The position numbers were made by a program, and so were the translations under genes. A stretch of DNA of 64,000 nt, from assembly GCA_049322215.1 (NCBI GenBank), contig JBMORU010000001.1:969759-1033758 (forward strand). Direction: 5' to 3'. Origin of the DNA: Patescibacteria group bacterium. Its GTDB lineage: Bacteria; Patescibacteriota; WWE3; UBA101185; UBA10185. Shown here piece after piece: positions 2,760-57,126 of this stretch. Below the pieces are notes generated by a model. It saw nothing but the letters and a program-made list of their open reading frames with translations. It had not been told where the DNA came from and ran no database searches. How positions within the stretch are numbered: position 1 is the stretch's first letter; each line of letters starts with the position of its first letter.

Positions 2760-2772
2760 CCTATAGTATAAT
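2760..2772 (+). promoter_or_regulatory. CCTATAGTATAAT promoter element (-10 box fused to the CCTATAGT motif)
   Basis: Exact 13-mer CCTATAGTATAAT lies 70 nt upstream of the ATG at 2843. The same 13-mer occurs at 10378, 11443 and 12606. A 9-bp stem (2792-2800 / 2815-2823) sits in the presumed 5' UTR. Confidence 0.6.
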
Positions 2773-2842
2773 ACAGGTATACCAGATCTATTGTTATTGG
2801 CTCAAACCTAATAACCAATAACACAAATATAAGGAGTAACAA

Positions 2843-3040
2843 ATGAAAATTACAAGCAAAAGCCAGTTAGATGAACAAATCGTTGCCGCCCAAAAAGCCG
2901 CAACACCAATGCCCAATTTCACAATTCCTACCAATCCAACGGAAGGACTTGTGGCGGCTACACTGCATACTCTTCAAGTTGAAGCCAAGAGACATGGGTG
3001 GCCTAATCCTAAGCTTCCAAAGATTTTGGGTCAAAAGTAA
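2843..3040 (+). CDS. hypothetical small protein (65 aa)
   Basis: ORF with RBS AAGGAG 8 nt upstream, its own promoter motif and its own terminator. Noticeably more G+C-rich than its neighbours. No signal peptide and no recognised family. Confidence 0.55.
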   Translation: MKITSKSQLDEQIVAAQKAATPMPNFTIPTNPTEGLVAATLHTLQVEAKRHGWPNPKLPKILGQK

Positions 3041-3063
3041 AGTTTAGAGGCTAGCTTAGTAAA

Positions 3064-3117
3064 CCCCAGATGATTGCATACCAATACCGTTTGCAATTAC
3101 TCTGGGGTCTTTTTTTT
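3064..3117 (+). terminator. rho-independent terminator between convergent genes
   Basis: Stem CCCCAGA (3064-3070) pairs with TCTGGGG (3101-3107), with an inner ATTGCA/TGCAAT pairing, followed by a T-run at 3111-3117. Confidence 0.7.
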
Positions 3118-3148
3118 GCTTAAGTTTTACTTTGGCAAAGCGGAAAGA

Positions 3149-5797
3149 TTATTTAGAAACGCGAAGTTTTATGCGCACATCACCTTTACGGCCATCTTCG
3201 TCTTCGGCTACAACATTAAATTCATGCTCGCCAGCCTGCGATTCAGGAAATGTTAAGTTATATCCATATGGCTCAGAAGAATCATCTGCAATTTTTTCTC
3301 CATCAATATAAAATCTTACTTCATCAATATCGTTTGGAGAAGAGACCTCAACCTTTAGTCTAAACTTTAAAGGAACATAGTCACCATCTTTTAAACCAAC
3401 AATATGAACTTCAGGGTTTACATCTTCTTTAAGCTTGCCGTCTTCATATTTAAGTGCTGATTTACTTGTAGGAGGAAAATATAAGTCGTTTCCATTGTAG
3501 TTTTCGCCAACCCAAGCATCTACGTCGTCTTGCCATTCGGGAAGTTCGGCAGTGATTTTAATGTATGTGTTTACTTCAGACTTGTCGGCATTTCTACAAG
3601 AGTCATTAGCTAACTTACCGTCTTTTTCACAAACTTCTACGCTTTGATACCATTCACTGGGCGCCGTAGGTTCGGTACCCTCAATAAACCACTCCTGGCG
3701 GCGAGAAAACTCACCATAGGGAAGTGCTCCCGTTAATTCATCCACTTCAATTTTTTTTACATTTTCAGGAGGCTCAAATTTTTCGTTTTCTTTATCTGCT
3801 AAATACTCACGCATGAATCTATTACCTATGGGTGTAGCTCCAGTTATACCTGATGCTACAAAAGGATTCATTTTGTCATTGTTATTGTTACCAACCCAAA
3901 CCCCTGCCACTACAGAGGGTGTGTATGCCATAAAGTAGTTATCTCGTTTATCATCGGTTGTACCTGTTTTTACAGCAACTTGATGCCCTGGAATATTTAG
4001 CAAACTGCCAGAACCAAAAGCAGCAGAACGAGCACCGTCATCAGACAAAATATCACTCATTAAAAAGGCAACATCTTCTCCAATAACTTGTTGCCCACCA
4101 TTATCTCTCCAACTGTATAAAATATCTCCGCGAGAATTTTTAACTTCTAAAATTCCTGTAGGTTTTCTGTAAACGCCTTTTGCTGCAAGAGTAGAGTATG
4201 CCCCTGTCATTTCTAAAAGCTTAGTTTCTCCGCCTCCTAAAGTTAATGACAAACCATAGCGAGTGGGGTCAGAAAAAGTTGTTATACCCATTGCTTTTGC
4301 TGTATCTATCATAGATTGTATTCCTACAATTTCTAAAGCTTTAACGGCGGGTATGTTCAAAGAATTACCCAAAGATTTTCTAAGAGAAGTAGGACCTTTA
4401 AAAGTGCCGTCATAATTTTCTGGTGTATAAGGCTTGCCCGCATCAGCTTTTTCAAATGTTGTTGGAACGTCTAAAAAGGGGTAAGCAGCAGTATAACCTT
4501 GAGAAAGCATTGTTGCATAAGTAATAGGCTTTATAGAAGATCCAGGTTGCCGGTTAGCTAAAGCAACATTAAGTTGAGGTTCGAAGGTACAACTGTTATC
4601 ACCAGTAATTCCTGAAATACAGCCTTCAGGCTCAGATTCGGCAAAGTAATCTTTAGAACCTACCATAGCCAAAACCTGGCCGGTTTTCGCATCTAAAGCA
4701 ACTAAAGACCCGTTTCCTACATTTAAGTTTTTAGCAGCATCAACTTCTTCTTTTACTATATTTTGTGCCATATCTTGAACATCTAAATCTAATGTGGTTG
4801 TTACCTGCAAACCACCCTGTTCTACCATTTCCTCACCGTATATTTCTACTAATTCATCTCTAACAAAAAATACAAAATGGGGAGCTTTAAAACTTGTTAA
4901 TGCAGTATCAAAAGATAAGTCTACCTGTTTTGCTGCTTCATACTCATCTTTGTTTAAATAATGCCATTGACCGCCTTCTTCCACCCAGCCATTATCAGTC
5001 ATTAAAAATAAAACATAATTTTTACGCTCTAAGCCTGCATTAGGGTCAGAACTGTAGGGTGAATATCTGCTTGGGCTCTGAGGTAACCCAGCTAAGTAGG
5101 CTGCCTCTGCCAAAGTTAGTTCTGAAGGGTGCTTGTTAAAATAAGATTTTGCGGCAGTTAAAATACCATAATTTTGACCACCATAAGGAGTTTCGTTCAA
5201 ATACATTTGAAGTATTTCATCTTTAGAATATTTATTTTCCAGTTGAAGCGCCAAAATAAGTTCTTTTACTTTACGAGAAATTGTTTGTTCTTGAGATAAA
5301 AGTGTGTTTTTTACTACCTGTTGTGTAAGAGTAGAACCACCCTGCAACCCTTCACCTAAAACTATATTACGTGTGGCTCTTAACATACCCCGCAAAGAAA
5401 ACCCTTGATGCTGATAAAATTCAGCATCTTCAGTTGCTAAAGTTGCTTGAACAACATATGGTGAAACATCTTCTAAAGAAACCAACTCGCGATTCTTTTC
5501 GCCATAAACTTCGAAAATAGAGGTTCCATTACGATCGTAAAGCTTTGTTGATAACTCAGCGTCTCTATTAAGTAATCTATCGGGGGTAGGTAAATCTCTA
5601 GAAAATACAGCCAATAAAATAACTACACCTAAAACACCTACCAATATTGAAAACAATGAAAAAGATGCGAGATAAGTTAAATACAATAGTGTCTTAGACC
5701 CCTTATATTTTGTATTAGCTTGAGGTTTTGGGGGTCGGTACGGTGTATACTTTCTCTTTGTTTTTCCACCAAATTTTTTAAAAATTTCCAAAGACAT
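3149..5797 (-). CDS. class A penicillin-binding protein (PBP1A-type transglycosylase/transpeptidase) with C-terminal Ig-like domain
   Basis: GT51 motifs EDAEFYQHQG and GGSTLTQQ. Transpeptidase motifs SSIK (SxxK), SLN (SxN) and KTGTT. N-terminal TM anchor. Start moved to MSLEIFKKFGG (ATG at 5797); the longer ORF to 6166 is antisense to the next gene. Confidence 0.9.
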   Translation of the reverse strand: MSLEIFKKFGGKTKRKYTPYRPPKPQANTKYKGSKTLLYLTYLASFSLFSILVGVLGVVILLAVFSRDLPTPDRLLNRDAELSTKLYDRNGTSIFEVYGEKNRELVSLEDVSPYVVQATLATEDAEFYQHQGFSLRGMLRATRNIVLGEGLQGGSTLTQQVVKNTLLSQEQTISRKVKELILALQLENKYSKDEILQMYLNETPYGGQNYGILTAAKSYFNKHPSELTLAEAAYLAGLPQSPSRYSPYSSDPNAGLERKNYVLFLMTDNGWVEEGGQWHYLNKDEYEAAKQVDLSFDTALTSFKAPHFVFFVRDELVEIYGEEMVEQGGLQVTTTLDLDVQDMAQNIVKEEVDAAKNLNVGNGSLVALDAKTGQVLAMVGSKDYFAESEPEGCISGITGDNSCTFEPQLNVALANRQPGSSIKPITYATMLSQGYTAAYPFLDVPTTFEKADAGKPYTPENYDGTFKGPTSLRKSLGNSLNIPAVKALEIVGIQSMIDTAKAMGITTFSDPTRYGLSLTLGGGETKLLEMTGAYSTLAAKGVYRKPTGILEVKNSRGDILYSWRDNGGQQVIGEDVAFLMSDILSDDGARSAAFGSGSLLNIPGHQVAVKTGTTDDKRDNYFMAYTPSVVAGVWVGNNNNDKMNPFVASGITGATPIGNRFMREYLADKENEKFEPPENVKKIEVDELTGALPYGEFSRRQEWFIEGTEPTAPSEWYQSVEVCEKDGKLANDSCRNADKSEVNTYIKITAELPEWQDDVDAWVGENYNGNDLYFPPTSKSALKYEDGKLKEDVNPEVHIVGLKDGDYVPLKFRLKVEVSSPNDIDEVRFYIDGEKIADDSSEPYGYNLTFPESQAGEHEFNVVAEDEDGRKGDVRIKLRVSK

Positions 5798-5851
5798 CGT
5801 TGAGTAATTATAGCAATTTAAAACCAATTTTTCATGACTACACACTAGATT

Positions 5852-5874
5852 ACTATGGGGTTTAGATGTATAAT
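5852..5874 (+). promoter_or_regulatory. promoter: variant motif ACTATGGGG plus extended -10 TGTATAAT
   Basis: ACTATGGGG (5852-5860) is one mismatch from ACTATAGGG. TGTATAAT ends at 5874, 47 nt before the ATG at 5922. Confidence 0.5.
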
Positions 5875-56359: not shown

Positions 56360-56768
56360 ATGTTAACAAGAGTTAGAAAATTTTCAAACATAGAACATAG
56401 ATTATGCAAGTTTAAGATTTTGTAGACCTAGCATTAAAATTTACTCATTACATGTGATGCATAAGTCAACTAAAAAATAAAAATTGCTTACAGGGCATTC
56501 TAGAGCCTCACACCCATTATTTACTGTCACAACAACAAATAGTAAGAATCAGCATGTTTAAAACTGCTAAAAATGTAATGAAATAAAAAAAGACAAGTGA
56601 GGTATATACGCAAGAAATGAAAATGCGGCATTAAACGTTGAATAGAGTAGCTGCGCCGCAAACTAAAAATAAATTAACATACAATTAAACAAAAATTTGT
56701 TTGGTATTAAAAAGTAAATTAATTTGGATCAAATTATAGGGAACAGGTTAGAATATTAAAAAATACAA

Positions 56769-56798
56769 GACGTCGTATAATGTATGTTTAACGACGCC
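56769..56798. other. dif-like / recombinase core-site-like imperfect inverted repeat
   Basis: GACGTCGTATAA - TGTATG - TTTAACGACGCC. The 12-nt arms match 9/12 as an inverted repeat around a 6-nt spacer. The ATAATGTAT core resembles E. coli dif CATAATGTATA (from memory). Confidence 0.35.
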
Positions 56799-56867
56799 GA
56801 GGATTTATATGTATTGCAAGCACATAGATTCAACTGAATAGGGAGGCTTAATGGGATCACTCTATTA

Positions 56868-56990
56868 AAGCAGTTAATTTAGAAGAATTAATTATGTATT
56901 AATAAGTATTATTTATAGCTATTTATTTATTAATTCAGTTTTTATTTACGGCTTAGTAAAATTAATTCTTACTTGAGTACAAATTAAGTT
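56868..56990. other. extremely AT-rich tract within an 838-bp noncoding region
   Basis: Runs such as TTAATTATGTATTAATAAGTATTATTTATAGCTATTTATTTATTAATTCAG. No ORF of 60 aa or more on either strand between 56360 and 57197. Confidence 0.6.
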
Positions 56991-57007
56991 ATGCACAATT
57001 AACTTGA

Positions 57008-57092
57008 AAAGTATGACAACCCTCCCCTAGCCAAAGTATGACAACATAAACTATGACATTCTTACTTAAATTGCTTAACTAACTATGACAAC
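57008..57092. repeat. iteron-like direct repeats TATGACA(A/T)(C/T), four copies
   Basis: Exact 13-mer AAAGTATGACAAC at 57008 and 57033, TATGACATT at 57052, TATGACAAC at 57084. Confidence 0.6.
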
Positions 57093-57113
57093 ATTACAAC
57101 AAGCATTAGTGTA

Positions 57114-57126
57114 ATAATACTATAGG
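57114..57126 (-). promoter_or_regulatory. orphan promoter-like element CCTATAGTATTAT facing the noncoding region
   Basis: The minus strand reads CCTATAGTATTAT, one mismatch from the 13-mer used by the lipoprotein genes. The next minus-strand CDS start is ~755 nt away (56359). ACTATGGGG lies nearby at 57141-57149. Confidence 0.4.

Follow-up and report, generated by a model that had tools for sequence, protein, structure and literature searches.

The promoter-associated octamer CCTATAGT as a putative regulator binding site at lineage-specific genes of a WWE3-like Patescibacterium

A stretch of 64,000 nucleotides from a Patescibacteria group bacterium (assembly GCA_049322215.1, contig JBMORU010000001.1, positions 969,759 to 1,033,758; hereafter the window) carries the octamer CCTATAGT at nine promoters, and almost all lineage-specific genes of the window have it next to their core promoter. 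The box also recurs in promoters of related genomes, which makes a binding site for a regulator the most likely explanation. On balance, we favour the reading that CCTATAGT is a cis-regulatory box and a putative binding site of a sequence-specific DNA-binding protein in this WWE3-like lineage. The sequence analysed comprised the window and its two flanks (L044 and L045), together 82.5 kb (Logan SRR32167788 contig 12010; NCBI locus tags ACOZAO_). The gene map was based on lists of open reading frames (ORFs) and precomputed Pfam matches, and for gene content the window was compared with 102 syntenic loci of relatives, using every window protein in tblastn searches. Loci of relatives are given below by their labels (L010, L052 and so on) where they have to be told apart.

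Distribution of CCTATAGT and its place at promoters

The window contains ten exact copies of CCTATAGT on the two strands together, compared to 1.99 expected, and none of 100 dinucleotide-preserving shuffles reached this number. Nine copies lie in nine separate intergenic regions, at 2760, 10378, 11443, 12606, 14978, 46758 and 48003 on the + strand and at 49290 and 57119 on the - strand. In the 4.4 kb of noncoding DNA, which make up 6.9% of the window, only 0.20 copies were expected, and 2000 first-order Markov simulations gave a maximum of 2. An earlier note on this DNA had listed these nine positions as intergenic, and all of them indeed hold the exact word. The intergenic enrichment that it proposed is likewise confirmed by the coding versus noncoding count in the window. 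Its nine copies are, however, not the window total, and its statement that the word is absent from coding sequence does not hold, as a tenth copy (63208-63215, - strand) lies inside a gene for a DUF87/TrwB-like ATPase (60771-63332, 853/857 aa), where it probably occurs by chance, and an eleventh (67484, - strand) lies within lspA, 3.5 kb past the window end.

Among all intergenic 8-mers of the window, CCTATAGT ranks second and only an A-run is commoner. The flanks CC...T surround 9/9 intergenic CTATAG hexamers compared to 1/25 coding ones, so that the earlier remark about coding hexamers having other flanks is right for 24 of the 25. The 24 one-mismatch neighbours of CCTATAGT have 59 matches in combination, of which 11 are intergenic; being so few in intergenic DNA, they let the exact word stand out sharply. 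One variant, CCCATAGT, was found at three promoter-like sites, namely at 5852, at 57141 and 5' of a 381-aa hypothetical gene in the upstream extension. The motif can be written as a core heptamer, CCTATAG, or in the relaxed form CCYATAGY.

It could be argued that the word is a compositional artefact and TATAGT merely a -10 variant in AT-rich promoter DNA, since TATAGT retains the critical -10 bases A2 and T6 and is used as a -10 in one relative (L010). This explanation is extremely improbable and is refuted for practical purposes: the CC prefix is present at 9/9 intergenic CTATAG, 0.2 copies are expected in intergenic DNA of equal dinucleotide content, the one-mismatch neighbours are not comparably enriched, and a separate, better -10 (TATAAT or TATGAT) adjoins 7/9 intergenic sites, with TATTAT at 57114-57126. 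Restriction-site avoidance was rejected because CTATAG is not under-represented (34 observed, 24 expected). A DNA uptake sequence, which would recur about once per kb in coding and noncoding DNA alike, was rejected as well, as only 11 copies are present in the 82.5 kb and 9 of them are intergenic.

Every intergenic copy lies 0-4 nt from a sigma-70-type -10 hexamer. Five copies are fused to its 5' end (four as CCTATAG-TATAAT and one as CCTATAG-TATTAT, 57114-57126), two are inverted in the spacer and two follow just 3' of it, and altogether the box touches 7/17 intergenic TATAAT hexamers of the window. The geometries that the earlier note had described (fused, inverted, downstream and the variant at 5852) were all correct on recheck. 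In the two regions scanned for sigma-70 promoters, the box-bearing sites were the best consensus matches. Their -35 and -10 hexamers are 17 or 18 bp apart, within the 16-18 bp of sigma-70-type promoters, and stand upstream of a gene, with scores of 12/12 (twice), 11/12, 10/12 (twice) and 9/12, and the scored promoters lie 35-65 nt 5' of start codons that are preceded by a Shine-Dalgarno site.

The fused form is represented by the promoter of a 65-aa orphan gene (2843-3040, + strand). It spans 2744-2772 as TTAACA-17-TATAAT (11/12), and CCTATAG forms the last 7 nt of the spacer (2760-2766), which yields the fused sequence CCTATAGTATAAT at 2760-2772. The same CCTATAGTATAAT is present on the + strand at 10378-10390, 11443-11455 and 12606-12618, in the promoters of lipoprotein genes at 10434-11366 (310 aa), 11512-12522 (336 aa) and 12663-13493 (276 aa), respectively; the last of these promoters reads TTTTCA-17-TATAAT over 12590-12618 (10/12).

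The two inverted copies are both on promoters of the - strand. The promoter of a 228-aa membrane-anchored orphan gene (14226-14912) reads TTGATC-18-TATAAT at 14968-14997 (10/12 plus TG), with ACTATAGG (14985-14978) in the spacer followed by gTGc and the -10, so that 14968-14985 can be written as ACTATAGGG-TGC-TATAAT. A perfect TTGACA-17-TATAAT at 46751-46779 (12/12) precedes the LPXTG gene 45427-46683 and holds ACTATAGG (46765-46758) in the spacer, 1 nt from the -10 (ACTATAGGG-TATAAT, 46751-46765). The second LPXTG gene (46846-47970, - strand) has another perfect TTGACA-17-TATAAT (48003-48040, 12/12), here followed by T and ACTATAGG (48010-48003), and the box spans the expected transcription start. 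In the region divergent from gyrA, TTGATT-18-TATGAT (49290-49327, - strand, 9/12) with CCTATAGT (49297-49290) directly 3' forms the promoter of a 150-aa orphan gene (48793-49245), an arrangement that the earlier note does not mention.

Two further sites carry imperfect boxes. The one-mismatch variant ACTATGGGG (CCCCATAGT on the - strand) is located 8 nt 5' of TG-TATAAT at 5852-5874 (+ strand), in the promoter of a 212-aa lipoprotein gene (5922-6560). The ORF 3149-6166 is over-extended, and as the true start of this PBP gene is at 5797, the lipoprotein gene is real. A possible degenerate relative, CCTTATAGT followed by AAACT (54164-54172, - strand), is weak evidence; it stands 5' of a 154-aa lineage-specific gene (53661-54125) that has a strong Shine-Dalgarno site.

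Conservation of the box in relatives

The three lipoprotein genes form a tandem of paralogues whose products share 24-29% identity. The 13-mer CCTATAGTATAAT is identical at their three promoters and at the unrelated 65-aa promoter, while the upstream flanks are unalignable, and in the alignment of the lipoprotein promoters it is the sole continuous invariant block. Such invariance amid diverged flanks suggests selection on the box.

The LPXTG proteins allow the comparison to be extended to other organisms, as they belong to a family that is widespread in Patescibacteria and combines a DUF11/CLIPPER domain with an LPXTG anchor. The closest full-length homologue is on a Joint Genome Institute (JGI) contig (L248) and shows 41% identity overall and 47% in the N-terminal domain. 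The promoter of this gene (P0004, a homologue of LPXTG374) reads cacacACTATAGGgTATAAT and contains the same 15-mer, ACTATAGGgTATAAT, as the LPXTG423 promoter of the window (46751-46765), with unrelated flanks. L248 contains 3 exact copies in 13.7 kb, all intergenic; the two further ones stand before small divergent genes, as CCTATAG-TACAAT and TTGACAtatacCCTATAGTATTGTATGCT. The promoter of an LPXTG homologue next to a sortase (L249) reads CCTATAGccTTGACA. Before DUF11/LPXTG homologues of three WWE3 loci (L257, L262 and L263, including GCA_000994815 and GCA_003485585) we found cgtCCTATAGTaTTGACA-N17-TAAAAT; the upstream neighbours differ between these loci, and similarity starts only a few bases before the box. 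L253 has a promoter with one mismatch (gCTATAGGTATATT), whereas no box was found at the DUF11/LPXTG promoter of L250. In the near-identical sister strain L252 the box is retained and the bases just upstream are altered. Within the DUF11/LPXTG family, the site is thus kept at homologous promoters with diverged flanks in at least three other organisms, as is typical of a regulon motif. These comparisons show purifying selection on the box, next to flanks that have diverged.

In the relatives as a whole, the density of the 8-mer is at background level (about 2.3 per 64 kb). Among non-redundant CTATAG hexamers of the relatives, 30/60 intergenic ones are CCTATAGT and 13/60 are CCTATAGC, compared to 12/211 and 21/211 of the coding ones, respectively. 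Intergenic CCTATAG is followed by N2-6 TTGA in 11/51 cases (background 3%, P = 2e-7); this TTGA is the start of a -35, and the -10 follows about 17 nt further downstream. The usual place of the box in relatives is 2-4 nt 5' of the -35; a fusion to TAnnnT is present in 7/51 cases (P = 0.002). The genes behind these boxes are small hypothetical ORFs with strong Shine-Dalgarno sites, often in the same slots as in the window (downstream of recG/rsmD and between PBP and tyrS). In L010, CCTATAGT supplies the -10 of the rpmF promoter (TTGACA-17-TATAGT).

These arrangements bear on whether the box could be read by RNA polymerase itself. In that case it would be an unusual extended -10 or spacer element, or it would mark promoters of an alternative sigma factor, and the leadered accessory genes would thereby form a strongly expressed class of their own. 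The zero-gap form CCTATAG-TAnnnT in five window and two L248 promoters, with the -10 hexamers TATAAT, TATTAT, TACAAT and TATTGT, is what such an element predicts, and because of this strict register in seven promoters it stays the main rival. TATAG furthermore resembles the -16 TRTG element of Gram-positive bacteria, the -35 appears weak by eye at three of the four CCTATAGTATAAT promoters (the scan gives TTTTCA at 12590-12618 and omits 10378 and 11443), and in L010 rpmF the word itself is the -10 (TATAGT). We nevertheless regard a polymerase-read element as unlikely, since the box is also inverted in the spacer at 1, 4 and 9 nt, can directly follow the -10 or precede the -35 by 2-4 nt, and accompanies LPXTG promoters that are already perfect TTGACA-17-TATAAT and need no auxiliary element.

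Overall, the box can precede the -10 by 0, 1 or 4 nt (9 nt in L249), in both orientations, follow it by 0-2 nt or precede the -35 by 2-6 nt, and unrelated sites share only 8 bp, plus the TATAAT of the fused form. It therefore differs from an extended -10, which has a fixed position (-15/-14) and a fixed orientation. The freedom in position (about -45 to +2) and orientation points to a protein-binding site and not to a polymerase contact. Operators of dual regulators, such as the LexA, Fur and Spo0A boxes, vary in position and orientation, and polymerase contact elements do not. The operator idea of the earlier note is thus supported by variable placement and orientation, but its dimeric regulator on a palindrome is not: a palindromic operator would show two-fold symmetry over about 12-20 bp, whereas here the 6-bp core CTATAG alone is symmetric and the flanks are asymmetric in 9/9 sites. 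Longer dyads are present at some sites only (CCTATA-N5-TATAGG at 48003 and CCTAT-N6-ATAGG at 11443), and the half-site partner at 46758 is lost in L252.

Genes behind the box and the Xer-side region

By its best protein matches, the window host is a candidate-division-WWE3-like Patescibacterium. RecG and GyrA show 54-60% and 63-71% identity, respectively, to their best relatives, which are metagenome-assembled genomes labelled candidate division WWE3, 'Patescibacteria group' or 'Saccharibacteria'; the top values were 60% for RecG in a collection of GTDB representatives and 71% for GyrA in JGI metagenomes. The gene order is pheS, pheT, a PBP1-type gene, tyrS, recG, rsmD, pyk, nusB, rnc, rpsP and trmD, followed by a type IV pilus operon (about 21 kb), a holB-like gene, gyrB, ppa, gyrA and a DHH-family gene, and finally by rnhB, an IMPDH-like gene, a gene for a Xer-type tyrosine recombinase, ruvC and yebC. 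Genes without a Pfam match are scattered among these core genes.

No counterpart was found in the 102 syntenic loci for the 65-aa gene, the 212-, 310-, 336- and 276-aa lipoprotein genes, the 228-aa gene, both LPXTG genes, the 150-aa gene and the 154-aa gene, while their core neighbours are conserved and adjacent in relatives. The box genes thus look like insertions, in the slots pheT/PBP, PBP/tyrS, recG/rsmD, rsmD/pyk, gyrB/gyrA and rnhB/IMPDH. The clearest slot with box-bearing genes is that between gyrB and gyrA (44297-49365): in relatives these two genes are neighbours or have just a pilin-like gene between them, and here they stand 5 kb apart, with the two LPXTG genes, ppa and the 150-aa orphan in between. 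The lipoprotein family and the 228-aa and 150-aa proteins gave only self-matches in collections of 5.8 and 1.8 billion proteins, and Pfam searches with ten motif-adjacent proteins detected LPXTG anchors only.

The insertions raise the question of whether the box is a functionless historical mark of a promoter module that was copied with inserted or duplicated genes and retained beside an essential -10, similar to the acquired cassettes that the earlier note had offered as an alternative. Every motif gene is indeed inserted between core genes that are adjacent in relatives, the three lipoprotein genes and the two LPXTG genes are tandem paralogues, and the units have their own promoter and Shine-Dalgarno site, several also a terminator hairpin. 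However, neutral bases near the -10 would have decayed between paralogues of 24-29% identity, as other intergenic DNA did. The paralogue flanks are unrelated, there are neither repeated cassette ends nor longer shared sequence, and unrelated genes (65-aa, 228-aa, 150-aa and the xer-side region) share the box. At LPXTG-family promoters elsewhere the box persists while shifting between the -35 and the -10 side, which indicates repeated selection and not co-inheritance. We therefore consider a historical mark quite improbable, and the cassette alternative is disfavoured. A promoter borne by a miniature inverted-repeat transposable element or cassette was rejected for similar reasons, as similarity stops at the motif and the distal ends of the insertions carry neither the motif nor repeats.

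A strong Shine-Dalgarno sequence (AGGAG or GGAGG) is present at 9/9 box genes compared to 5/43 other genes (Fisher P = 5e-7). The box genes have leaders of 35-65 nt, and several of their units end in a terminator hairpin. In many core genes (holB-like, ppa, rsmD, ruvC, gyrA, pyk and others), by contrast, the start codon follows a -10-like hexamer at a distance of 6-11 nt and lacks a Shine-Dalgarno site, for example at 41530-41544, 48095-48116, 13570-13591 and 58481-58511, which suggests leaderless core mRNAs. The box marks accessory and not housekeeping genes in the window, as the earlier note had stated. Its surface-proteome regulon, by contrast, is only partly borne out. Of the nine products, six have a membrane anchor at the N-terminus, a lipobox or an LPXTG anchor, whereas an export signal is missing from the 65-aa and 150-aa products, no ORF follows the copy at 57119, and the box genes of relatives include small, cytoplasmic-looking ones. 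The common denominator is lineage-specific genes, each with its own promoter and a strong Shine-Dalgarno site. A possible role of the 65-aa product as a small ribbon-helix-helix autoregulator was considered, but its AlphaFold model (two helices, pLDDT 75) was not informative.

Several observations were made on neighbouring genes. A hairpin, AGGATCTTCGGATCCT (46723-46738, - strand), with TATTTTGT after it, is present in the 5' leader of the LPXTG gene 45427-46683; it was flagged as terminator-like and may be an attenuator or a stabilising 5' stem. A one-mismatch inverted-type arrangement, TCTATAGGagTAATTAT, is located 5' of infC (L044 5078-5221; about -4110 to -3967 in window numbering), and as infC is a core gene, the relaxed motif may reach beyond accessory genes. 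In the type IV pilus operon (27128-36845), five genes (1058, 955, 238, 193 and 186 aa) have no counterpart in the syntenic loci, no Pfam domain except an N_methyl pilin motif in the 186-aa product and no CCTATAGT box; they may code for lineage-specific pilus-associated or tip proteins. The 318 nt 5' of tyrS (6561-6878) contain a long hairpin, then TTGCTATAAT and a leader of about 130 nt. This resembles a regulated leader, such as the T-box of Firmicutes, though no Rfam family matched, and Rfam and tRNA scans of the whole window gave no match either. The 641 nt at 17136-17776 that appear as intergenic are partly coding, with short genes under the 60-aa ORF cut-off. They contain the gene for ribosomal protein L32 (MPVPKRRHSKGRTRRKR...) and a further ORF starting MSFSHLMLQENTV..., which may be the 71-aa gene called there on the source contig.

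The copy at 57119 differs from the other intergenic copies in that no ORF is present within 760 nt downstream. It is located in a noncoding region of 838 nt (56360-57197) between the Xer-type recombinase gene (55373-56359, - strand) and a gene for a 264-aa membrane protein, which is syntenic in relatives and contains, in this order, a 26-bp palindrome, an AT-rich stretch, a DnaA-box-like TTATGCACA, four TATGACA units and two boxes. The palindrome, CGTCGTATAA-TGTATG-TTTAACGACG (56771-56796), lies 412 nt 5' of the Xer gene and is near-invariant in the four distant relatives inspected (L052, L058, L061 and L080). It shares CG(C/T)ATAATGTAT with E. coli dif and resembles dif in its CGCATAATGTAT core. 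The palindrome probably serves a single-recombinase Xer system as its dif site, located at the replication terminus. Gene directions converge on this part of the window, and near 56 kb the sign of the GC skew reverses, as would fit a terminus. An iteron-like array (56989-57090) separates the dif-like site from the pair of CCTATAGT-type boxes. It combines TTATGCACA, which is a perfect TTATCCACA in relatives, with a C-rich run and four TATGACA(A) direct repeats, whose unit in relatives is the 15-mer TATGACAWNNNTACA. Even with permissive settings, no Rfam family was matched in 56300-57260.

The two boxes (57114-57149, - strand) are the variant CCCCATAGT (57149-57141) and the fused CCTATAGTATTAT (57126-57114), with starts 22 nt apart, and both face the TTGTCATA repeats, the dif-like site and xer. 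They have conserved counterparts in relatives, tagcacCCTATAGTatt and tacCCTATAGTtct, and the pair is kept across the clade within 350 nt of the dif-like site. With respect to the genes on either side, the pair has one orientation in the window, L077 and L069 and the opposite one in L052, L057, L081, L088, L058 and L061, and L080 has one box each way. In the L052-type group the opposite strand reads ACTATAGGgTGcTAATAT, which, on a tentative reading, resembles the inverted-type promoter at 14968-14985. An invertible promoter was rejected, as no convincing flanking inverted repeats were found.

The position of these copies could also mean that the box is a polar signal for chromosome organisation at the terminus, similar to KOPS or matS, and not a transcription signal. 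Of the 11 copies in the 82.5 kb, 10 point toward the dif-like site at 56.8 kb, two clade-conserved copies lie within 350 nt of it, and gene convergence and the change in GC skew coincide with the region. Yet polar motifs are not restricted to noncoding DNA and keep no register with promoter hexamers, polarity cannot be established from as few as eleven sites, the boxes of L248, L249 and L257 stand in unrelated contexts, and the orientation in relatives is simply that of the gene served, several copies even pointing away, so that the bias seen here may be coincidental. A terminus signal is consequently very improbable.

Predicted mode of action, related systems and significance

If CCTATAGT is the binding site of a regulator, its position allows a prediction of the mechanism. 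In this genome the box lies at about -23 to +2, within the RNA-polymerase footprint of near-consensus promoters, and a bound protein would occlude the polymerase and act as a repressor. As every copy is inside the footprint of a strong promoter, repression is the most economical mechanism, and the box genes would form a co-repressed, inducible accessory set. In relatives the box is centred near -42 to -44, where the same protein could be an activator, so that the factor may be a dual regulator. The copies on the Xer/dif side may be an ancestral, clade-wide target.

Several points weigh against a regulator binding site. The 82.5 kb cover about 8% of the 1.11-Mb genome (1,112,869 bp). No helix-turn-helix protein was found in this sequence, and the only regulator-like proteins are YebC, a DksA/TraR-type protein and two receiver-only response regulators. 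Conservation over only 7-8 bp with asymmetric flanks is less than a dimeric operator would normally show, a set of nine exact and few degenerate copies is unusual for a transcription-factor site, and the exact -10 register in five window and two L248 promoters also fits recognition by the holoenzyme. YebC (58512-59066) was considered as the binder, as a Lactobacillus homologue has the predicted motif SSTAGACR (PMC5561223); this motif shares just CCTA with the box and is a lead, not evidence.

Known operators offer several comparisons. The LexA SOS box, the radiation/desiccation response motif (RDRM) of DdrO and the Fur box are, like CCTATAGT, short words with a palindromic core that occur at many unlinked promoters between the -35 and the start, in either orientation, and define a co-regulated gene set. 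In contrast to the 7-8 bp of the box with its asymmetric CC...T flanks, these operators are conserved over 16-20 bp; the box matches none of their consensus sequences, and its targets are orphan and surface genes instead of a stress regulon. The Spo0A 0A box (TGTCGAA) is a 7-bp asymmetric word that is used in both orientations, activating 5' of the -35 and repressing where it overlaps or follows the -10. The box resembles it in length, asymmetry, orientation and promoter positions, but this resemblance is functional only: the sequence differs, and no Spo0A-type DNA-binding response regulator was found in the 82.5 kb, where the two response regulators present are receiver-only.

With the extended -10/-16 element (TRTGnTATAAT), the box shares the zero-gap abutment at five window promoters and the likeness of TATAG to TRTGn. 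Unlike that element, it has its G at -13 and not at -14, comprises seven bases instead of 2-4 and also occurs inverted, 3' of the -10 and 5' of the -35. The initiation regions of the phage promoters T7 (...CACTATAGGGAGA), K11 (...CACACTATAGGGAGA) and SP6 (...GACACTATAGAAG) are identical to ACTATAGG(G), and L248 and the site at 49290 even read CACACTATAGG. However, the further upstream 10-12 bp of phage promoters are not conserved, and the fused class would transcribe away from its gene. A promoter of a phage-type single-subunit polymerase (about 19-23 bp) was rejected, because 8-12 bp are shared and the orientation is opposite to the gene at 2760, 10378, 11443 and 12606. No gene for such a polymerase was found in the 82.5 kb, and a scan of viral contigs with CCTATAGTATAATA gave scattered single matches only and was uninformative.

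A search of full-text literature found no mention of the box motif, the matches being primers and unrelated papers, and among the top-ranked matches on promoters, regulons or transcription regulation in Patescibacteria, or the candidate phyla radiation (CPR), nothing was relevant. The box is a familiar kind of feature, a regulator box that defines a regulon, and not a new mechanism; we found no described case for this lineage.

In a broader and distinctly speculative view, for which we see only a slim chance, gene expression would have a two-tier architecture, with core genes transcribed from plain promoters as leaderless or Shine-Dalgarno-less mRNAs and fast-evolving, lineage-specific genes placed on a common box chassis under a single dedicated factor. 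The chassis would consist of a near-consensus promoter, CCTATAG, a leader and a strong Shine-Dalgarno site, and would serve surface proteins and small orphans. The dedicated factor would silence or switch the whole accessory set, and its ancestral target would lie beside the Xer gene and the dif-like site.

The finding reaches other genomes and is hence stronger than the window alone shows. The box provides a handle on a predicted regulon and a marker for promoters of accessory genes in related metagenome-assembled genomes. It may also be used as a bait for its regulator, with the box sequences CCTATAGTATAAT and ACTATAGGGTATAAT and the mutant-type counterpart CCTGTCGT. Many box genes encode cell-surface proteins, which are candidates for host contact in episymbiont-like organisms.

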